From Pristiophorus japonicus (taxonomy: Eukaryota): DNA of 64,000 bases. The stretch lies in contig NC_091993.1 in NCBI RefSeq assembly GCF_044704955.1, positions 17,856,001 to 17,920,000 of the forward strand, read 5' to 3'. Below, piece after piece: positions 2,604 through 60,874 of the stretch. The notes under the pieces were generated by a model, which saw only the letters and a program-made list of their open reading frames with translations, was not told the origin of the DNA and ran no database searches. The position numbers and the translations under genes were made by a program. The number at the start of each line of letters is the position of its first letter. The stretch's first letter is position 1.

Positions 2604-3218
2604 GGCCCATAATTTGTGGCCCCTACGGGCGCGTTTCAGGTGCACACTTGTGTTCTTCTTGACAGATCATCCACATCCGCGGGAAAAGGAGATTCACGAT
2701 TGGAGCCTGGTAAAAGCAGGCGTATGGTGTGCTTTTGCCAGTGTAAGAGTTTTAAAAAACATTAAAAATAAAATATTATGTATTATTTATATATTAAGAA
2801 CCCTGTGCAATAAGGTAAGTTTATTTTTAGCCCAGTTAAAACATGAAAATATATTTTTCAAAAAATAAAATTTTTGTTTTAAATATTTAATTAAATGCCA
2901 TTTCAATTAATTTTAAATATGTAATTTTTAAAAATTTGTTTGATGTGTTCATGTACTTATAGGGTTTCCGTTCATTCGGAAGCCCCATAAGCATCAATGG
3001 GGATTCCCTTCTTTGATTGGTTGGACCAGCCCATGTGATCCCAGGGGTACTTGCGAACCGCCTGCACCTCTGAGATACGTGGGCCTCTACCCATGGGTAC
3101 CCGGAGCGGCCCAGTACCGCGCATCCCCGTACCTCCTGGACCACCAGGTACACGGGAATCTTATTGGCAGATCGGAGGCATTTACCCACGGGAAGCATCT
3201 GAGCGCAAATTCAGGGCC
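2604..3218. mobile_element. GGCC-TIR MITE
   Basis: GGCCCATAATTTGTG ... CGCAAATTCAGGGCC; flanks GGT/AGT. Confidence 0.65.
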
Positions 3219-4399
3219 AGTGTATTTTTTCCCCCAAAAAGCTGAAATGGTTTCCTGTGCAATTTTGAAATCTTTCCTACCATCCATTCTTTGTTAGTTG
3301 CATCCTCATCCAAGCGGAGTTGTTGTGGATAATGACAGGACTGTAAAAAAAAGGACACGAATGAAGTAAGGGATCCTCTGGGTACGAGGCAAAGTTTCTT
3401 CTTGCTAGCAGTCTCCAATCTTTTTCTTTTTAACATTTGTTCACCCTCCTCCCCTGCTACTCTTACTAACTCCTCTTCCCCCACCCCCTCACCAACCCAT
3501 AGGCTCAAATTCTGCCACTTTTATCACCACCACGGCTGAGATCAGCAACTCAGCTTAGAGATGTGATCATACCTGGGATCTTCCTGTATCCTAACTCGCA
3601 CTAAGTCCCATTCACTCATCGTCCCTGAGTTCACTGACCTACAATGGTTCAACAGCTATTGATTTGGTTAGCCGCTTGCACATCTCCATCTCCGACGGTT
3701 AGCAGAACCTTCACTGCCTCCCATCCCTGTCATTCCTCCCCCACAAGTCCTACGATGAAAACTTGAGCAATGCGCCATTGAGCAGTGATCCATTGGCAGA
3801 TCTGGCTGGAGCACGTCAAACTCTTATCAAGCCTTACTCCCCTCTGCTAAAACTGACCACTGCTCTAGAATCACACTGGAGTGCAAAGATAACCCCACTC
3901 TCCTTTTCTACGATCAACTGCCTCGTTAAACCCCTTTTCCCTACTCCCTTTGCCCTCACCTCTGACAAAAATTGTGAGAAACTTATGGATTTCTTCATCT
4001 TTTCAGCTGCCTCTGCTGCTTCCCCTTGGTCACTAAGTTAAATCTCTTCCAATCCCTCTCCTACTCTAGCCCTAAACCTCCCACTGTCTCATTTCGCCAG
4101 CATCTCTCTCAGTGCCCTCTGCAAGGTAATAAACTAGAAGATTATGCTGATGGGGTTAGAGGAAGAGGAGTGGGAGGAAGCTCATGTGGAGCATAAATAC
4201 CGACATGGACCATTTGGGCCAGTGGCCTGCTTCTGTGCTGTACATTCTATGTATTGCATCCATGGCATCGACATCTCACTCCCTTAACCCCCATTTCCAC
4301 TAAAATCCTTACTACTGAATTTCCCTAACTGACCCCCATACCAGCTAATGTTGTAAATGGCTCACACTCCCTTGCCTTGTTCCTGATCTCCACTCCTAT

Positions 4400-7365: not shown

Positions 7366-7675
7366 GACTCTTGGGAGTGGGCTCATTTGTACTGTTTTAC
7401 CGATAGCTGCTGATTTGGGGAAGGAAAGTGTTTGGTAAACTTTATTTTTAGATAAACAATGCAATTGCACAATGCATTATTGTGTCACTTATACATGATG
7501 CAGTGGTAATCAGGTATGTGTTATGGTGCTAAAGTTTGCTCAAGATTTCCAAATGCTTTTTTTTTGGCATTTCTGAAGGCATTTCCTGCTTCTGTGTTGT
7601 TAGCCTGCTTGACCGACATCCAGTCTTGGATGAATCAGTTACCTCCTTTTAAACATTGGGATGACCGAAGCAATT

Positions 7676-8384
7676 GGCCCGGAATTTGTGGTTGGGATGA
7701 CTGCGAACTGGCAGCGTTTGTCACCATTCCGCCTTTGAAACTGACTAATTTCACTTCGGGATTTGGCAGGTGCGGAAATCCTGACGTTGCGGCCTGACAT
7801 TGACTGCTTCAACACAAGCTGCGTTTTGCACCCACCCCCACAGAGTCGGCAATCTGTGTAATCAGCCAACTCGGGGGAACTTTGGCTCTGCCACAGTAAT
7901 TATGCTGCTAACTTCCCCACTAAAAGTTAGACCCAAAGGGATTAGTGTAACTGGAGTTTTAACAGCGTATTGACTGCTAAACAAAGGTGACGGGCCTGAA
8001 AAACTAATTTAAATTTTGTGCAGTGTAAAATTTGTCCATTTGAATCAAAATTAACATTTTTAAGAAACTTTTAAAGTTTGTTGATCTTTATTTCCGGTTT
8101 TCCTTTTCCCCATGTGAGAGCCCCAATCTTTGTTTTGCTCTCTTGAACATTTTTAAAGTTAGAATTTTGAGCTTACCCATTTCCTTGTTCGCTGTCTGTG
8201 AGAATTCTGCGGTTTGATTGGCTGCTTAGATAGCTTCTTGACATCACAACAGTTCGCACATGGGAATCCCCATGATACTTCGTTGATTTGAATTGAATGT
8301 CGGAAAACCAGTGCTTTGTGTGAACCGTACTTCAGGTCTAGTGGCGAACATCTTCACCTCGCCCCTGACTGCAAATTCTGGGCC
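7676..8384. mobile_element. GGCC-TIR MITE inserted in an L2-like fragment
   Basis: GGCCCGGAATTTGTGG ... CTGCAAATTCTGGGCC; 3-bp TSD ATT. Confidence 0.8.
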
Positions 8385-9119
8385 ATTGCCTTTTTCCCCA
8401 GCCAGAAACACCATACCCTCGCCAATTGATTACATCCCCCAGTAACCCGGGTTAAAGCGACTGTTTGCAACCTCGACATCTTATTAACAAAACCTAGAAC
8501 CTGTGGAATGTCGCGAGCTTAGGCATCCTATGCTAGATACCAGCATACCAACCAAGTCTCCACGTGATAGTCTTCGGAGCTGAGCAGATAAATATAAAAT
8601 AGATCGAACACTTGTTTCATTTTTAATATTTAGAGTAACAAAATCAAAAGTCTGACGAGTTAAGTCTAAAAGTAGAAATAGATAGACGATATATGCCAGT
8701 CTTTCTCAACAATTATTGACTTGATCGTCTCAACACTGAAAGTGGAACACTATTCACCTGCATGCAGTCCAGTTCTTTATTTCTCTTCATTTGTCTCGAT
8801 GCAACTTGTCTTGCAAATTGGGAGGGTGGTTTTAGACCAAAGATAACTAACACTTTTGATAATACCTACCTGTTCATTTAAAGGTAAGAAATGTGTGGGT
8901 AACATTCATGCCAAACTAGAGCTGGGTCCCTTTAGGACAGGTATCCGGATTTGTTCTTCATGTAGCGGGACAACGACATGGGATAAACTTCCAGGTAGAA
9001 TAGCAAAAACCCTGGAATCATTTAAGAAACAATTGGGTGCTGCAATGAGAGAGGGATTAGGGTCTCTCTGGATGGCTGAATGGCCTTCCTCACCCACAAT
9101 TACCAATGGATATTGTGAT

Positions 9120-34825: not shown

Positions 34826-35041
<216 letters not shown>

Positions 35042-35730
35042 TAAGTCTTCCTGGTGCTGTGGCAATCTTTTCATGGTCGCACACTGCAATAGTCTGGTTT
35101 TAGTTTAGCATATGTTGTCAAAATTGTACAACATTTCAGTTCTTTAAGACCAAGCGAATACTCAGAATAACAAGAGGGAAGGAAATTTTGCTGAAATATT
35201 GGTTCTACGTGTGACCAATCTGGCATCACTGGCTGTTCTTATAGATGGATGGTTGTACGTTCAGACTATTTTGGCATATTGGCTTTTAAACACCATGCAC
35301 TGACTCCCCCTGGTGAATCAAAGCAAACTGTTGAAAATAATTGCCGTTATTTATCAATAAGTAATTTCAAGTGGTTAGAAGACTGGCCCTGAATTTGCGG
35401 TCGGCATGACGGCGTACTCTGAGTATGTCTTCATACTGCCTTTGAAATTGACCGCAAGTTTGGGATTTAAGCGCATGCGCTAAATCCTGAACTTACGATC
35501 TGTCAAACTCCAAATAGAAAGATGATCCGCTGCGACTTTCAAATCCTTATTGCTGCCGAAAAGTTGGGCTAATTGCCCACCAACTGCGCATCAATTATGC
35601 TGGAAAGTTTTACGACCACTACAAACAGGCACAGGAGCCTGTCTGCACAGCGTAAGGGGAGGGGGGGGATGAGAAAATTGTGCAATAATTTAAACTGAAC
35701 ACATAAAACAACCTACCAGGCAGCTGTAAA

Positions 35731-36186
35731 AGCTTCGGCGGCAGTCGGGAGCAGCGTCGAGGAGGTGCATGGAGAGGCCTATAAAAGGCACAGCAGGTCC
35801 GGGGCCCAGCGTCGGCGGCAGTCGGGAGCAGCGTCGAGGAGGTGCATGGAGAGGCCTATAAAAGGCACAGCAGGGAGTCCGGGGCCCAGCGTCGGCGGCA
35901 GTCGGGAGCAGCGTCGAGGAGGTGCGTGGAGAGGCCTATAAAAGGCACAGCAGGGAGTCCGGGGCCCAGCGTCGGCGGCAGTCGGGAGCAGCGTCGAGGA
36001 GGTGCGTGGAGAGGCCTATAAAAGGCACAGCAGGGAGTCCGGGGCCCAGCGTCGGCGGCAGTCGGGAGCAGCGTCGAGGAGGTGCGTGGAGAGGCCTATA
36101 AAAGGCACAGCAGGGAGTCCGGGGCCCAGCGTCGGCGGCAGTCGGGAGCAGCGTCGAGGAGGTGCGTGGAGAGGCCTATAAAAGGC
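35731..36186 (+). repeat. 80-bp tandem monomer array (~5.7 copies), one TATAAAAG per unit
   Basis: CGGCGGCAG at 35736, 35813, 35893, 35973, 36053 and 36133. TATA at 35780, 35857, 35937, 36017, 36097 and 36177. The first unit lacks 3 nt. Confidence 0.97.
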
Positions 36187-36368
36187 GTACTTGTGCAGCT
36201 ACAGGGAGAAGGCAAAAAAGAAGTAGAAAGAAATCAAAAGGCGACGTCACAGCCAAGAGGGTAAGTGATTGGCTGGTGATTGGTGAGTAGTTTTTCTTTT
36301 TTCTCCTATGTCAGTGAGTAACTTTTAATATTGTTGTTGCCAATTTAAGTGTATATAAGGGTTAAGTC

Positions 36369-37316
36369 ATGGCAGGAGAGCTCGGTCGGGTGTTATGCTC
36401 CTCCTGTACCATGTGGGAACTCAGGGACACTTCCGGTGTCCCTGACGATTACGTGTGCGGGAAGTGTATCCGCCTCCAGCTCCTGACAGACCGCGTTGCG
36501 GAGTTGGAGTTGAGGGTGGATTCACTCTGGAGCATCCACGATGCTGAGAATGACGTGAGTATCACGTGTAGCGAGTTGGTCGTACCACAGGGAAAGGGTC
36601 CACAGCCAGATAGGGAATGGAAGACCAACAGGAAGAGCAGTGCAAGGAAGGTAGTGCAGGAGTCCCCTGTCGTCATCCCCCTGCAAAACAGATACACTGC
36701 TTTGGGTACTGTTGAGGGGGATGACTCATCAGGGGAGGGCAGCAGCAGCCAAGTTCATGGCACCGTGGCTGGCTCTGCTGCACAGGAGGGCAGGAAAAAG
36801 AGTGGGAGAGCAATAGTGATTGGGGATTCAATGGTGAGGGGAATAGATAGGCGTTTCTGCGGCCGCAACCGAGACTCCAGGATGGTATGTTGCCTCCCTG
36901 GTGCAAGGGTCAAGGATGTCTCGGAGCGGGTGCAGGACATTCTAAAAAGGGAGGGAGAACAGCCAGTTGTCGTGGTGCACATTGGTACCAACGACATAGG
37001 TAAAAAGAGGGATGAGGTCCTACGAAACGAATTTAAGGAGCTAGGAGCTAAATTAAAAAGTAGGACCTCAAAAGTAGTAATCTCGGGATTGCTACCAGTG
37101 CCACGTGATAGTCAGAGTAGGAATCGCAGGATAGCGCAGATGAATACGTGGCTTGAGCAGTGGTGCAACAGGGAGGGATTCAAATTCCTGGGGCATTGGA
37201 ACCAGTTCTGGGGGAGGTGGGACCAGTACAAACCGGACGGTCTGCACCTTGGCAGGACCGGAACCAATGTCCTAGGGGGAGTGTTTGCTAGTGCTGTTGG
37301 GGAGGATTTAAACTGA
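36369..37316 (+). CDS. CR1 ORF1p (zinc finger/leucine zipper plus SGNH esterase-like domain)
   Basis: CSSC...CGKC, LTDRVAELELRVDSL, GDSM, HIGTND and DGLH motifs; 315 aa. Confidence 0.93.
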   Translation: MAGELGRVLCSSCTMWELRDTSGVPDDYVCGKCIRLQLLTDRVAELELRVDSLWSIHDAENDVSITCSELVVPQGKGPQPDREWKTNRKSSARKVVQESPVVIPLQNRYTALGTVEGDDSSGEGSSSQVHGTVAGSAAQEGRKKSGRAIVIGDSMVRGIDRRFCGRNRDSRMVCCLPGARVKDVSERVQDILKREGEQPVVVVHIGTNDIGKKRDEVLRNEFKELGAKLKSRTSKVVISGLLPVPRDSQSRNRRIAQMNTWLEQWCNREGFKFLGHWNQFWGRWDQYKPDGLHLGRTGTNVLGGVFASAVGEDLN

Positions 37317-37393
37317 TATGGCAGGGGGATGGGAACCAATGCAGGGAGACAGAGGGAAACAAAAAGGAGGCAAAAGCAAAAGACAGAAAGGAG

Positions 37394-40300
37394 ATGAGGA
37401 AAAGTGGAGGGCAGAGAAACCCAAGGCAAAGAACAAAAAGGGCCACTGTACAGCAAAATTCTAAAAGGACAAAGGGTGTTAAAAGAACAAGCCTGAAGGC
37501 TTTGTGTCTTAATGCAAGGAGTATCCGCAATAAAGTGGATGAATTAATTGTGCAAATAGATGTTAACAGATATGATGTGATTGGGATTACGGAGACGTGG
37601 CTCCAGGATGATCAGGGCTGGGAACTCAACATCCAGGGATATTCAACATTCAGGAAAGATAGAATAAAAGGAAAAGGAGGTGGGGTAGCATTGCTGGTTA
37701 AGGAGCAAATTAAGGCAATAGTTCGGAAGGACATTAGCTTGGATGATGTGGAATCTATATGGGTAGAGCTGCAGAATACCAAAGGACAAAAAACGTTAGT
37801 GGGAGTTGTGTACAGACCTCCAAACAGTAGTAGTGATGTTGGGGAGGGCATCAAACATGAAATTAGGGGTGCGTGCAATAAAGGTGCAGCAGTTATAATG
37901 GGTAACTTTAATATGCACATAGATTGGGTTAACCAAACTGGAAGCAATACGGTAGAGGAGGATTTCCTGGAGTGCATAAGGGATGGTTTTTTAGACCAAT
38001 ATGTCGAGGAACCAACTAGGGGGGAGGCCATCTTAGACTGGGTGTTGTGTAATGAGAGAGGATTAATTAGCAATCTCGTTGTGCGAGGCCCCTTGGGGAA
38101 GAGTGACCATAATATGGTGGAATTCTGCATTAGGATGGAGAATGAAACAGTTAATTCAGAGACCATGGTCCAGAACTTAAAGAAGGGTAACTTTGAAGGT
38201 ATGAGGCGTGAATTGGCTAGGATAGATTGGCGAATGATACTGAAGGGGTTGACTGTGGATGGGCAATGGCAGACATTTAGAGACCGCATGGATGAACTGC
38301 AACAATTGTACATTCCTGTCTGGCGTAAAAATAAAAAAGGGAAGGTGGCTCAACCGTGGCTATCAAGGAAAATCAGGGATAGCATTAAAGCCAAGGAAGT
38401 GGCATACAAATTGGCCAGAAATAGCAGAGAACCCGGGGACTGGGAGAAATTTAGAACTCAGCAGAGGAGGACAAAGGGTTTGATTAGGGCAGGGAAAATG
38501 GAGTACGAGAAGAAGCTTGCAGGGAACATTAAGACGGATTGCAAAAGTTTCTATAGATATGTAAAGAGAAAAAGGTTAGTAAAGACAAACGTAGGTCCCC
38601 TGCAGTCAGAATCAGGGGAAGTCATAACGGGGAACAAAGAAATGGCGGACCAATTGAACAAGTACTTTGGTTCGGTATTCACTGAGGAGGACACAAACAA
38701 CCTTCCGGATATAAAAGGGGTCGGAGGGTCTAGTAAGGAGGAGGAACTGAGGGAAATCCTTATTAGTCGGGAAATTGTGTTGGGGAAATTGATGGGATTG
38801 AAGGCCGATAAATCCCCAGGGCCTGATGGACTGCATCCCAGAGTACTTAAGGAGATGGCCTTGGAAATAGTGGATGCATTGACAGTCATTTTCCAACATT
38901 CCATTGACTCTGGATCAGTTCCTATGGAGTGGAGGGTAGCCAATGTAACCCCACTTTTTAAAAAAGGAGGGAGAGAGAAAACAGGGAATTACAGACCGGT
39001 CAGCCTGACATCGGTAGTAGGTAAAATGATGGAATCAATTATTAAGGATGTCATCGCAGTGCATTTGGAAAGAGGTAATATGATAGGTCCAAGTCAGCAT
39101 GGATTTGTGAAAGGGAAATCATGCTTGACAAATCTTCTGGAATTTTTTGAGGATGTTTCCAGTAGAGTGGACAAGGGAGAACCAGTTGATGTGGTATATT
39201 TGGACTTTCAGAAGGCTTTCGACAAGGTCCTACACAAGAGATTAATGTGCAAAGTTAAAGCACATGGGATTGGGGGTAGTGTGCTGACATGGATTGAGAA
39301 CTGGTTGTCAGACAGGAAGCAAAGAGTAGGAGTAAATGGGGACTTTTCAGAATGGCAGGCAGTGACTAGTGGGGTACCGCAAGGTTCTGTGCTGGGGCCC
39401 CAGCTGTTTACACTGTACATTAATGATTTAGACGAGGGGATTAAATGTAGTATCTCCAAATTTGCGGATGACACTAAGTTGGGTGGCAGTGTGAGCTGCA
39501 AGGAGGATTCTATGAGGCTGCAGAGCGACTTGGATAGGTTAGGTGAGTGGGCAAATGCATGGCAGATGAAGTATAATGTGGATAAATGTGAGGTTATCCA
39601 CTTTGGTGGTAAAAACAGAGAGACAGACTATTATCTGAATGGTGACAGATTAGGAAAAGGGGAGGTGCAAAGAGACCTGGGTGTCATGGTACATCAGTCA
39701 TTGAAGGTTGGCATGCAGGTACAGCAGGCGGTTAAGAAAGCAAATGGCATGTTGGCCTTCATAGCGAGGGGATTTGAGTACAAGGGCAGGGAGGTGTTGC
39801 TACAATTGTACAGGGCCTTGGTGAGGCCACACCTGGAGTATTGTGTACAGTTTTGGTCTCCTAACCTGAGGAAGGACATTCTTGCTATTGAGGGAGTGCA
39901 GCAAAGGTTCACCAGACTGATTCCCGGGATGGCGGGACTGACCTATCAAGAAAGACTGGATCAACTGGGCTTGTATTCACTGGAGTTCAGAAGAATGAGA
40001 GGGGACCTCATAGAAACGTTTAAAATTCTGACGGGGTTAGACAGGTTAGATGCAGGAAGAATGTTCCCAATGTTGGGGAAGTCCAGAACCAGGGGACACA
40101 GTCTAAGGATAAGGGGGAAGCCATTTAGGACCGAGATGAGGAGGAATTTCTTCACCCAGAGAGTGGTGAACCTGTGGAATTCTCTACCACAGAAAGTTGT
40201 TGAGGCCAATTCACTAAATATATTCAAAAAGGAGTTAGATGAAGTCCTTACTACTAGGGGAATCAAGGGGTATGGTGAGAAAGCAGGAATGGGGTACTGA
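37394..40300 (+). CDS. CR1 ORF2p (APE endonuclease plus reverse transcriptase)
   Basis: ITETWL, VYRPP, GNFN (normally GDFN), SDH; YLDFQKAFD, GVPQGSVLGP, KFADD. 968 aa uninterrupted; frame open upstream to 37292. Confidence 0.96.
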   Translation: MRKSGGQRNPRQRTKRATVQQNSKRTKGVKRTSLKALCLNARSIRNKVDELIVQIDVNRYDVIGITETWLQDDQGWELNIQGYSTFRKDRIKGKGGGVALLVKEQIKAIVRKDISLDDVESIWVELQNTKGQKTLVGVVYRPPNSSSDVGEGIKHEIRGACNKGAAVIMGNFNMHIDWVNQTGSNTVEEDFLECIRDGFLDQYVEEPTRGEAILDWVLCNERGLISNLVVRGPLGKSDHNMVEFCIRMENETVNSETMVQNLKKGNFEGMRRELARIDWRMILKGLTVDGQWQTFRDRMDELQQLYIPVWRKNKKGKVAQPWLSRKIRDSIKAKEVAYKLARNSREPGDWEKFRTQQRRTKGLIRAGKMEYEKKLAGNIKTDCKSFYRYVKRKRLVKTNVGPLQSESGEVITGNKEMADQLNKYFGSVFTEEDTNNLPDIKGVGGSSKEEELREILISREIVLGKLMGLKADKSPGPDGLHPRVLKEMALEIVDALTVIFQHSIDSGSVPMEWRVANVTPLFKKGGREKTGNYRPVSLTSVVGKMMESIIKDVIAVHLERGNMIGPSQHGFVKGKSCLTNLLEFFEDVSSRVDKGEPVDVVYLDFQKAFDKVLHKRLMCKVKAHGIGGSVLTWIENWLSDRKQRVGVNGDFSEWQAVTSGVPQGSVLGPQLFTLYINDLDEGIKCSISKFADDTKLGGSVSCKEDSMRLQSDLDRLGEWANAWQMKYNVDKCEVIHFGGKNRETDYYLNGDRLGKGEVQRDLGVMVHQSLKVGMQVQQAVKKANGMLAFIARGFEYKGREVLLQLYRALVRPHLEYCVQFWSPNLRKDILAIEGVQQRFTRLIPGMAGLTYQERLDQLGLYSLEFRRMRGDLIETFKILTGLDRLDAGRMFPMLGKSRTRGHSLRIRGKPFRTEMRRNFFTQRVVNLWNSLPQKVVEANSLNIFKKELDEVLTTRGIKGYGEKAGMGY

Positions 40301-40866
40301 AGTTGCATGTTCAGCCATGAACTCATTGAATGGCGGTGCAGGCTAGAAGGGCCGAATGGCCTACTCCTGCACCTATTTTCTATGTTTCTATGTTTGAGGG
40401 ATGTGATTGTTTTAAAAAAAAAATGTAATCTTGCAGTCTTCCGTAAATAACTGTACTTACTCAAAAGTATTCCCAAAAAGCACAGTACTATACCTGTCAA
40501 ATACATATAATTAGTATTACACTGTTAAATTTAAAAGTTGTAATACATGGGGTTTCTATGTTTCATGATTGGCTAGTGAAAGGAGCGCCACCTCACGTGA
40601 TCCCAAGTACGTTTACGCGCTCCTGGGATCCGTGGGCCACTGCGCTTGGGGCTTCGCATCAGGTAAGTGCGGATTTCGTTCGGAGGTTGGCGGTGTACTC
40701 CTCAGCTACGCCGCCGATCGCAATTTCGGGGCCATGGTGTTTTGACTTTGTACACACAATGTGTACGTTCCTGAAGCAGCACACATACTCGAACCGTGGA
40801 GGTGACTGCAGTATTGTTTGTTCCGTCCTTTGGATGGAGTTGTGTAGCCGTGATGATGTAAGATAA

Positions 40867-41133
<267 letters not shown>

Positions 41134-41389: not shown

Positions 41390-41568
41390 TGTTATGTATG
41401 TATATAAACCTCACCAGTATGTAAGACTTGCCACTAGGGTCACACCTGTGGGAGACCTAAGGGTCACCTGTGCACCCTGGGGCAAGCAGGTATAAAAGGT
41501 GATTCACCATGCTGCTTCTCCACTCGAGTCTGAATAGAGACCAAGGTCACAACAGTTTGAACATAACA
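41390..41568 (+). mobile_element. Short solo LTR
   Basis: TGTTATG...CATAACA termini, internal TATAAAAG and degenerate AATAGA, 5-bp flanks GAAGA/GAAGC. Confidence 0.7.
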
Positions 41569-45785: not shown

Positions 45786-46497
45786 TCATCATCATAGGCG
45801 GTCCCTCGAACAAGGATAACTTGCTTCCACACCAAAAGGGATGAGTTTGTAGATGTTTCAAATGAAGGACCCGATATTCCAGTCCTGAACTCCAGGGCTT
45901 GACAGAGCTAGGCCTTTATCCAGTGGCAAGGGTTAACCAGGACGACTGGAGACCTGCTCTGCTGCACGGCCCTAGTGCGCACACATATCGCAGTGTTGGC
46001 TGGGCTCTTGGCTCTTCTGGGCCCTGTACCCTCATTTGCCGCTACTCCGCCATGATCTCTCGCCGCTCCTCCGCCACAAAACATTTGCTGCACCTGCGCC
46101 ACGATCTATCGCCGCACCTCCGTCACGATCACTCGCCGAATCTCAGCCACGATCCCTCACTGCTCCTCTGCCCCGATCATTTGCCGCATTTCTGCCTCGA
46201 TCTCTCGCCTCTTCTCCGCCTCGGTCATTCATCGCACCTCCGTCACAATCTCTTGCCGCTCATCCGCCCCGACCTTCCCGCTCCTCTGCTGTACCTGGAC
46301 TCCGTCGATGTTCCTGCCCACGTTCCAAACGGCGACCTGGGTTTTGATGACGTCACCCAGTCGCCCACCTTGAAGTCGTTACACACTTGGAGCAGCTCAC
46401 GCTGGAAGTTGTAGTGACATGCACCAGCTCGTTTATCCTCCTGTCCTCTCGCAGGTCGGAGTGGCCCACGATGTTGCAGGGGCCCACGCCCCAGCAA
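45786..46497 (-). mobile_element. Same (ATG)n-tailed retroposon family, with an internal 24-bp minisatellite (~46030-46290)
   Basis: Shares blocks with 315-570 and 53165-53335; unit ~CGCCACGATCTCTCGCCGCTCCTC, about 10 copies. Confidence 0.7.
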
Positions 46498-58359: not shown

Positions 58360-58483
58360 GCGCTCAAGCCGAGGCTCCGATTGGCACCCAGTAAGCCCCG
58401 CCCTTGCTGCGCGCTGATTGGACACACGGCGCCGTCGGTTAGATGACGTCGAGAGGCAGGTTGTCCGGCCGATTCGGGCGGCG
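58360..58483 (+). promoter_or_regulatory. PDCD7 CpG-island promoter
   Basis: Reverse CCAAT (ATTGG) at 58380 and 58417, GC box GCCCCGCCC 58395-58403, CRE-like TGACGTC 58444-58450. Confidence 0.7.
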
Positions 58484-60355
58484 ATGGAGCGGCCGCCATT
58501 TTATCCCGGCCACCCCGAGCGGCGCAATGGGCCGCCAGCGGCGCCTTTCGCTTCGCAGAACCCAAGCCGCGATTCTTTTCATAACCCGGGGAGTCGGAGT
58601 GAGGAGAAACCCGGCCCGGCGTTCCCTCCCCCCCGGCAGCATGGCTTCGCTGGGCCGGGGAGAGGCCGGGCCGCGGAAGACTGGAGGCCTGGTCCACCCT
58701 CGGAGAACTACCTACACCCGGGCCGGGCCCCGGGCGGGCCTGGGAGCAGTCTGGGCAGAGCGGAGCCGCTAGAAGAGCACGGCCAGCACTGGGATCAGGA
58801 GTACCGGGAGCACCCAGCCCACCTGCGGAGCTTCCCTCCCCACCCACAGGGACATCAGCACCTGGAGGGTGCCCCCCACCCATGGGGCCGGGACCACCCT
58901 CCTCCTCACCCACTGGCTCCGCAGCACCGAGACCACCCTCTTCCTCACCCACCAGCTCCATCACACCAAAACCACCCTCCTCTTCACCCACCGGCTCCGC
59001 AGCACCGAGACCACCCTCCTCTTCACCCACCGGCTCCGCAGCACCGAGACCACCCTCCTCTTCACCCACCGGCTCCGCAGCACCGAGACCACCCTCCTCC
59101 TCACGCACCGGCTCCGCAGCATCGTGACCACCCTCCTCACCCGCAGGAACATCAGCACCAGGACCATCCGCCTCACCCACAAGGACATGAGCGTCCCCAC
59201 CACCCGTGGGATCGTGATCACCTAGGTCAACCTCCCCAGCTACAGAACTACCCTCCTCTCCCACTGGGTCACGAGCAGAAGGACCATCTGCCCCACCTGC
59301 AAGGGTATGAATGCAGAGACCAAGCTCGCCTCGCGCAGGGATTTCCCCACCAGGACCGCTCAGCTCATCAGTATCCAGAACATTATCCTCAGCAGGGACA
59401 GTCCTATCATCGTCCTCAACATCCCTTTCAACACAAACACCTAGATTCCCAGCAACAGTATCCGTTTCGGGAACCTTCACATCCCGAGCAACATCCACCC
59501 TTCTCTGAGAAAGCTGGAGTTGCCAACAATGTGCCACCTCACATCCACAGCATGACTTCCCAATCTGTGGACAGCTCGTGCCAGAACCAAACCTTACTTC
59601 ATGGCGGAGGCTTTAATTTACCTGCTGGCTATGGACCTCAAAATTCTCAGTTGATAAATCCTAGCCATAACATCCATAATAATCAACAAACCTTTCCAAC
59701 TTTATCAGGGGAGAGACCGTCTTGGAAAAATGATCATGGCATGCAGTGTAACAATGATCAGATGGCAACACCATGGCCCAATGCTGCTAATTTTTCACCG
59801 AGTCCGAAAGATGTCAGTGTGGAACAACTGAATAGAAATGACTCAATGACCAGAATGTCGGCTCCAGACCAGTTCTCTCACAATTTTAAATGTAATGAAT
59901 CTCCAAATGAGCAAGATGAATTTTGGCTTATGAGGTTCTTGTCAAGACGAAGGTTGCAGTCTTCTGAGATTAAAAAACCCAAATCTTTACCATTAATTAG
60001 TGAAGTAAAGGAATCAGTACTAAGTGCTTGTAAACTTGTGACTGAGCTTACTGCTTTATGCCAGCAATTGAGGCACAATGTGGAAAATGAAGCAGTTTGG
60101 AATGAATCTTATCTAAAAGCAGTTGAAATAAAGACGGTGTTACAGGAAAAATTAAAGACACTAAATGATAGCGAGTACATCAGTGCTGTTAAAAAGAAAC
60201 TGGAAGCAATTAAAAAGAAAAGAAGCAGTATTCAAAGAAAGAAGCAAGAGTGGTATTTAGAAAAAGAAGAGGAAGAGACCAGGGCGGCAGAAAAGGAAGC
60301 AAAAATTGATGGATGGAGAATGAAGCGTGTTCGAGAAGTTGAAGAAAAAAAGCGG
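58484..60355 (+). CDS. PDCD7: PDCD7 (programmed cell death 7 / U11-59K) coding exon 1
   Basis: ATG in strong context (gcgATGg); MERPPFYPG... then a Pro/His-rich region, then a coiled-coil ending IDGWRMKRVREVEEKKR; CGG|gtactg donor; 624 codons, joins exon 2 in frame. Confidence 0.88.
58907..59180 (+). repeat. Coding 39-bp tandem repeat (HPPAPQHRDHPPL) in PDCD7 exon 1
   Basis: Units start at 58907, 58946, 58985, 59024, 59063 and 59102, followed by degenerate shorter units. Confidence 0.92.
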
Positions 60356-60874
60356 GTACTGAGTCGTATCATTGTATTGCATGTGTGATCAGGGCATGGT
60401 GATCTTCATATCTTACCAATTGTAATATCCAGGCAGTTACAAAAATACATTGTTAACTGGGGTAAATAAAACCATGTAGATTTGAGGCCTGTTTGTAGAT
60501 TACTCCGCTCTGTAAATACTTTAACTCTCACTGCTGGCCATGATCTACCCTTTATTCGAAACTGATGATTAGAAGGATATTCGGGATGTGCTTGTTCCGT
60601 TACATGTTCAGGTGATGGCACTGGTACAATTCCCTGGTAGCCATTCTCCATGTGTGAACCTAGATGTCAAATGCCAGTCAGCTATTTGGCTGTGAGGGGC
60701 ATCACAGCCCAGTTCTGTTCTTGGCTGGTAGTGACATGCACTGTTTGCAGCAAAGGCCACTGGATAGTAATCAGAAATGACCAACCAGGCAGATTCCTCC
60801 ATTGTGTAACATAGATGCATAAAGGCAATTGTTGCACCCCGGCAGCTACTTCAGCACATAATTTAATTTGGAAA

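Follow-up and report, generated by a model that had tools for sequence, protein, structure and literature searches.

The stretch of DNA analysed here (the window) comprises 64,000 nt of the genome of Pristiophorus japonicus (assembly GCF_044704955.1, contig NC_091993.1, positions 17,856,001 to 17,920,000 of the forward strand) and contains a long interspersed nuclear element (LINE) of the CR1 type at 35731-40395, inserted in sense orientation into an intron of the gene for mitochondrial CLPX. The upstream exon of this gene (34845-35021) ends in what is presumably the first half of a Walker A motif, and the downstream exon (40892-41056) matches mitochondrial ClpX in the PDB (E=6e-29); exons, element and flanks are all read on the + strand. 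The element is of the esterase type, contains open reading frames (ORFs) that are intact, and begins with a tandem array of promoter-like units.

The first frame, ORF1 (36369-37316), is intact and encodes 315 aa with an N-terminal Cys cluster followed by an SGNH/GDSL esterase domain (Pfam PF13472, E=1.7e-13), and it also matches PDB 4c1b, an 'ORF1-encoded protein' (E=1.3e-30). Two Pristiophorus japonicus proteins match it with 96% and 88% identity, and where its 69 protein matches name a eukaryote, this is a cartilaginous fish. The ORF2 frame (37292-40300, first Met at 37394) runs for 1002 codons without a stop and, as in canonical CR1, combines an AP endonuclease (PF03372/PF14529) and a reverse transcriptase (RT; PF00078) in one frame. 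CR1-labelled consensus rows of dogfish and catshark look, by eye, like the ORF1 and the start of the ORF2 of the window. In the 3' untranslated region (UTR) a hairpin is predicted at 40334-40375, a region that is kept among four window copies, being common to the other CR1 fragments there (repeat family D11); the fold is not significant alone (z -1.53; 17/200 shuffles fold equally well). The element terminates at 40377-40395 in an octamer repeat, two TTTCTATG units (40377-40392) plus TTT, and has no poly(A); such an octamer microsatellite in place of poly(A) is the canonical CR1 ending, the octamer available for comparison being ATTCTRTG (PMC2612034). Since ORF1 is reported as missing from chondrichthyan L2, and also from Rex1 and Zenon, in the CR1 survey PMC13343379, an esterase ORF1 in a chondrichthyan host indicates a canonical CR1 rather than an L2. 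Vertebrate canonical CR1 as described there, and the shark and ray element HER1 (Table 1 of PMC3747384), share with the window element the esterase ORF1, the endonuclease-RT ORF2, the 3' octamer repeat and the chondrichthyan host; the 3' hairpin that precedes the octamer in canonical CR1 has its counterpart in the predicted one of the window. The identity proposed in the initial annotation of this DNA, made from its letters, is supported by the esterase ORF1, the endonuclease-RT ORF2 and the 3' octamer repeat.

The array occupies 35731-36186 (68% GC), where Tandem Repeats Finder reports a period of 80, 5.7 copies, 98% matches and a score of 870. It consists, as had been annotated, of about 5.7 near-identical 80-bp units, unit 1 measuring 77 bp, but ends 24 nt before the 36210 first given. 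The units start at 35731, 35808, 35888, 35968, 36048 and 36128, and all six contain the annotated TATA box, TATAAAAG, at 35780-35787, 35857-35864, 35937-35944, 36017-36024, 36097-36104 and 36177-36184 (boxes 1 to 6). The regular distance of 31 nt from the TATA to the A of a C|A dinucleotide, on which the initial annotation was built, is found at four of the five junctions between a TATA and the next unit, placing the predicted starts of boxes 2 to 5 at 35888 (offset 31), 35968, 36048 and 36128. Behind box 1 the C|A lies at offset 28 because of a 3-nt deletion in unit 1, with C|G steps at 31 and 34, and box 6 is followed by no pyrimidine-purine initiator at offsets 28-34. A TATA-initiator promoter is here taken to consist of a TATAWAWR box and, 29-32 nt downstream of it, a pyrimidine-purine step that serves as the start; four of the six boxes show this combination, as C|A at 31, and a unit with this C|A contains no competing pyrimidine-purine step at offsets 25-30. 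In mouse, cap analysis gene expression (CAGE) gives a TATA-to-start distance of 30-31 nt, with a range of 28-34 (PMC1779604); the 31-nt spacing of the window accords with this. By chance, TATAWAWR appeared in the 69%-GC unit in 2/20,000 dinucleotide and 8/20,000 mononucleotide shuffles, a test for which the motif was picked after having been seen. Upstream of the TATA, 5/7 positions match what we take to be the consensus of the TFIIB element, which was not used as evidence. A further TATAAAAG lies at 41491, in repeat-like intron sequence (41455-41520) without match to the CR1 unit. A structured RNA or ribozyme in the unit was considered and rejected (z +1.19; no Rfam family near cut-off), as was protein coding by the array, the ATGs of units 1 and 2 opening frames of only 30 and 31 codons.

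The 5' junction of the element falls at 35731-35736, which corresponds to offsets 31-36 from a missing upstream TATA, with 35731/35732 as the best single guess. Over the 80 nt upstream of 35731, 22/80 positions are identical to the unit, which is background and bears out the statement that the upstream bases do not match it. Both flanks are halves of one older, MITE-like repeat (resembling a miniature inverted-repeat transposable element) interrupted by the CR1: the left half, with a terminal inverted repeat at 35384, covers 35384-35730 and the right half 40396-40735, and the joined halves (688 nt) align with a 712-nt copy at 7675-8386 (411/604 identical; score 196 versus a shuffle maximum of 63). 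It follows that the left flank is not CR1 and that little target DNA was lost, and the possibility that the upstream flank is CR1 UTR was rejected on this ground. Position 35734 differs from the unit and the left flank ends in an A run; an 11-mer across the junction, which the host repeat's sister copy has as well, points to 35731/35732 (reached by 3/300 shuffles). No target-site duplication of at least 4 nt was found around the CR1. The MITE-like family is about 700 bp long with GGCCC-ended terminal inverted repeats, a third terminus lying near 3205-3221, and the CR1 sits in the AT-rich centre of its copy.

We propose, with a probability of about 0.7, that each unit is a TATA-initiator core promoter and that this copy was reverse-transcribed in full from an RNA initiated by an upstream TATA that is now lost. 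According to this model, the 80-bp unit would be a minimal RNA polymerase II core promoter, its TATA being followed 31 nt downstream by an initiator with which the next unit opens. The parent element would have had a seventh, upstream TATA from which the RNA of the window copy started, and the copy would begin at the predicted +1 because it is the full reverse transcript of that RNA. Such an RNA would lack the TATA that fired while carrying every TATA downstream, so that the daughter would be at least one unit shorter than its parent; given a core element wholly upstream of the start, unit loss would be obligatory, and tandem duplication would refill the array. Activators probably bind the region between the array and ORF1 or the GC-rich unit itself, and the missing initiator after box 6 might limit the production of promoter-less daughters. 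Observation supplies the anatomy, the spacing, the intact ORFs, a left flank that is foreign to the element and the way in which variants are shared among units, and the support from phase lies in a boundary at offsets 31-36 next to a flank shown to be another repeat. Promoter activity, start site, loss per round and the route of unit regain are what we infer from these.

The position of the 5' end can be compared with that of other CR1 families, since PMC13343379 Supplementary Table 2 gives the initial 400 nt of some 1,000 CR1-group consensus sequences. Ten of the roughly 46 parts of this table were covered in full, chosen for sharks, rays and reptiles, together with motif and name searches. 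The resulting tally of 122 CR1-labelled rows, many of which begin inside an ORF, was counted by eye throughout, excludes the doubtful tandem rows SquAca-6a and CarCar-19b, and could be shifted by the remaining parts and by sequence past 400 nt. Tandem 5' units are present in 22 of the 122 rows, with a TATAWAW or TATAAAG box in nine, a degenerate box in five and none or an unclear one in eight. The nine TATA-bearing rows come from catshark, whale shark, stingray, skate and tortoise and have units of 80-331 bp. In four of them the consensus starts within the mouse range of 28-34 nt from the TATA (HypSab-12 at 29, RhiTyp-2a and GopEvg-2 at 32, ScyCan-11b at 34), where 0.45 would be expected (P=5.5e-4); merging related rows into seven lineages gives P values from 0.045 at worst to 1.7e-4 at best. 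Outside the tally, the start of RhiTyp-8 corresponds to offset 28 in the RhiTyp-11 unit, in which a textbook TCAGTT initiator has its A at 32, and the lizard HemCap_L2-1b begins at offset 33 of the L2-1a unit. Among the degenerate-box rows, three of the five begin at 27-35, a window picked afterwards.

These figures also bear on the proposal that the array is a minisatellite of the 5' UTR, either enhancer-like or neutral, and that the copy was 5'-truncated near the start by chance or by microhomology with the target. For a single copy the chance of the observed phase is 1/80 if exact, 7/80 for offsets 28-34 and 9/80 for 28-36, that is, 1-11%; if the boundary is 35736, the flank equals the unit start at four of five bases, LINE copies are mostly 5'-truncated (PMC6454616), and five of the nine consensus starts miss. 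Nevertheless, the target is random relative to the phase of the unit, so microhomology provides no higher prior for this particular phase, which is common to four of nine other consensus ends, and the TATA itself would be left unexplained. We regard truncation by chance as improbable.

Several observations weigh against transcription from a lost upstream TATA. One genomic copy of the family was examined, no second copy of the array unit or 5' end is present within the 64-kb window, and the 5' junction is not preceded by an extra G, which in L1 is a signature of the cap. The best global alignment scores let the left flank run to 35735-35736, leaving an ambiguity of 5 nt; the statement that similarity begins exactly at the predicted A stands as at or within 5 nt of it, not to the single base. 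Five of the nine TATA rows start outside 28-34 (ScyCan-19 at 22, GopEvg-4 at 44, GopEvg-5 at 52, LeuEri-1 at about 59 and RhiTyp-11 at 79), and in a test set beforehand on 32 CR1 rows from three table parts only LeuEri-1 could be scored, and it missed, its start sitting at a low-support, lower-case edge of the consensus. The eight of 22 tandem rows without a clear TATA indicate that the box is not needed for arrays. Finally, consensus ends, obtained by automated extension and manual curation, are a proxy for individual copies (PMC13343379). Transcription of the copy from a lost upstream TATA, as first suggested, is favoured by the geometry, by an end no more than 5 nt from the predicted start and by the phase in four of nine consensus sequences, the exact base of the boundary being uncertain. 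On the whole, the first interpretation is partly supported, and the comparison across families strengthens it.

The array is joined to ORF1 by a unique 5' UTR of 182 nt (36187-36368), here called the tether. A motif scan found in it what we take to be a CRE-like site (cyclic AMP response element) at 36242-36249, reverse CCAAT boxes at 36268 and 36279, and splice-donor-like hexamers at 36261, 36283 and 36314, in sense with CLPX. The order of a CRE followed by two reverse CCAAT boxes recurs, by eye, in dogfish SquAca-3, -6a, -15a, -15b and -18 and in white shark CarCar-4 and -11, rows whose monomers are unlike the window unit. Judging from this recurrence, the CRE/CCAAT tether would be a conserved regulatory region and possibly also an antisense promoter. 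It could even be postulated that the tether, or initiator and downstream elements, set the start as in an internal promoter of the mouse L1 kind, the TATA being dispensable and only sharpening or boosting initiation; the first unit could then start at its own +1, with no unit loss required. The recurring tether motifs agree with this, as do the TATA-less units in eight of 22 rows and the degenerate boxes of similar-skeleton dogfish units (SquAca-15b, -7, -9), which suggest that a TATA can erode, and mouse L1 is itself TATA-less and YY1-directed (PMC2894050). On the other hand, the unit lacks YY1 and GC-box motifs (nor is there a YY1 motif anywhere between 35731 and the ORF1 start), and an internal promoter would need one coincidence to place an exact consensus TATA at -31 and another to give dissimilar units of 101-331 bp a similar distance from TATA to 5' end. 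We therefore consider it unlikely.

The arrays contain promoter-like motifs of more than one kind. Tortoise units bear GC-box sites upstream of the TATA, like ordinary gene promoters, and GopEvg-2 and -5 also have CCAAT. TATA-less CR1 monomers are seen in ScyCan-7a/7b and CarCar-2/-23 (PMC13343379 Supplementary Table 2). In those TATA-less monomers we recognise what is presumably a CTCF-like site, and in ScyCan-7 a presumed octamer site, which suggests that several promoter types may compete within one genome.

The internal variation of the array is informative about its history. It has 44 CpG, with an observed/expected ratio of 0.93 versus 0.44 for the window, and an array this CpG-rich and nearly undecayed argues for a young insertion. 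Units 3-6 are identical across their shared length, whereas units 1 and 2 have in common a CpG transition, not present in units 3-6, for which two independent events have a probability of about 0.02-0.05, so that a unit was apparently duplicated after the mutation; the rebuilding of the array by duplication, as first suggested, finds here signs of recent duplication. The transition creates upstream ATGs at 35769 and 35846 (the 30- and 31-codon frames), which may reduce the translation of ORF1 where transcripts are longest. The identity of units 3-6 could also mean that the array grew locally once the element had inserted, or that it reflects stutter in the assembly, normal transcription being read-through from host genes such as CLPX; the sense orientation of the CR1 in a host intron, and an array length known here from one locus, fit such a history. 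Ordered variants (the deletion of unit 1, the transition of units 1-2) are nonetheless unlike stutter, and 5' tandem units in 22 of 122 family consensus rows of other sharks, rays and a tortoise speak against a local origin, which we consider very improbable.

If the TATA boxes do act as proposed, how fast the array is spent depends on which of them fires. With five TATAs upstream of an initiator, the loss could be one to six units, and the earlier assumption of one monomer per round is unsupported. In a toy model of six TATAs with equal firing the array is exhausted in 2.4 rounds on average, versus six if the outermost box dominates; on this model a loss of exactly one unit per round would occur only in the latter case.

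A comparison with known systems places the array close to the mouse L1 monomers. Mouse L1 (L1Md A, Tf, Gf) likewise has monomers in tandem at its 5' end, with a unique tether between them and ORF1; its copies begin at one fixed phase of the monomer that agrees with start sites, its daughters are shorter than donors and its arrays regrow by duplication, as would be the case here (PMC6454616, PMC10620060, PMC9022269). For mouse L1 it is established that 0.6-1.8 monomers go missing in daughters, in keeping with internal initiation (PMC10620060), and that truncation points match CAGE starts, the mechanism by which duplication keeps up the arrays being unsettled (PMC6454616, PMC9022269). Nonetheless, mouse L1 belongs to the L1 clade, with units of about 200 bp and TATA-less promoters whose start is tied to a YY1 site that coincides with it or lies shortly downstream (PMC2894050), whereas the window has a CR1 with 80-bp units and a TATA upstream of the predicted start, present in 6/6 units. 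By analogy, the array would work like mouse L1 monomer promoters while standing outside that class. In Drosophila HeT-A/TAHRE, as proposed here, the promoter of a preceding repeat drives the downstream copy, in an LTR-like (long terminal repeat) manner (PMC5537684); HeT-A, however, borrows the 3' UTR of the complete element next to it in a telomeric array, whereas the window has short units inside one dispersed element, whose upstream flank, a MITE-like half and not a CR1 3' end, rules out a promoter of the HeT-A type. In comparison with LTR elements, the array has no known rebuilding in each round. LTR elements themselves rebuild their promoter at every reverse transcription.

The idea of a consumable array is thus already established for mouse L1, and 5' repeats in the CR1 group were noted in 2026: according to the legend of Fig. 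4 of PMC13343379, some elements have at their 5' end one to five repeating subunits, each 100-500 bp long. That legend concerns ORF1-less elements and assigns no function, whereas the window CR1 has an ORF1 and TATA/initiator units, and the supplement shows 5' repeats in ORF1-bearing CR1s too. In the main text of this survey the words 'promoter', 'TATA' and 'tandem' do not occur, nor does 'promoter' in that of PMC8665684 and PMC11303007. A literature search that did not extend to older subscription papers and Repbase Reports turned up no account of TATA monomers for either CR1 or L2. The TATA-anchored version of the idea is apparently new, the novel element appearing to be a TATA core promoter upstream of the start that would always be left behind; apparently, too, such an upstream promoter recurs among the CR1 elements of sharks, of rays and of a tortoise.

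As a rule, LINE promoters are expected to be internal, since whatever lies upstream is lost whenever the element is copied. A TATA array would break this rule in a countable way, since the 31-nt ruler would identify the unit that fired and give the number of units spent, and the regrowth of monomer arrays, unsettled for mouse L1, would thereby become testable from genome sequence alone. The matter is of some weight in hosts where the CR1 group makes up 22-34% of the genome, as in sharks and rays (PMC13343379). More tentatively, and with the odds somewhat against it, stacked TATA promoters may be a widespread strategy, repeatedly reinvented in vertebrate CR1 and some lizard L2. The hosts might then be sharks, rays, a tortoise and perhaps crocodilians, with dissimilar units of 72-331 bp, and these units could conceivably have converged on a TATA whose start lies some 30 nt downstream, where one unit meets the next. 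If this were true, non-LTR elements would use a true upstream promoter at a cost of at least one unit per round, would depend for their survival on duplication as a step linked to the life cycle, and would carry in their monomer number a generation counter for each insertion.

A TATA array would further predict sharp, portable promoters with splice donors scattered in shark introns. Here, the donor-like hexamers of the tether could splice a first exon begun at a TATA onto the CLPX acceptor at 40892. Donors of this kind are seen again in the consensus UTRs of many shark CR1s, and a complementary anti-donor is found on the other side of the TATA in RhiTyp-2a, -7 and -8 and ScyCan-6 and -19; one idea is a putative binding of U1 to the donors that protects the long RNA. 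Ray gene models have CR1 ORF1 fused to TMEM204 or labelled as an RPS24 isoform (proteins P0057, P0058, P0024), a hint of host transcripts that start in CR1 or are spliced to it, or of annotation artefacts.

Wider searches found no copy of the CR1 5' end in plasmids, and an alignment scan of bacterial and archaeal genomes with ORF1 gave 245 pattern matches, none of them confirmed, and thus no contaminating relative. The corresponding ORF2 scan of GTDB species-representative genomes returned 19 loci (L001-L019), mostly distant and CR1-like (26-54% identity), and one match that is a 621-nt fragment of 78% identity. No tandem array precedes the upstream ORF in L001, L004, L005 and L007, the four loci that have one, which are too distant to test the window family. 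Such animal CR1-like loci in bacterial assemblies are likely to be contamination with host DNA, and one shark-type CR1 ORF1 (P0007) is annotated as a Pseudomonas aeruginosa hydrolase.

Elsewhere in the window, a degenerate tandem repeat of 24/48 bp lies at 46021-46286 (about 10 copies of 24 bp). Downstream of CLPX, a PDCD7-like first exon (58418-60388, + strand; Pfam PF16021) contains at 58888-59138 a coding tandem repeat of 39 bp in 6.4 copies, which encodes a His/Pro-rich stretch.
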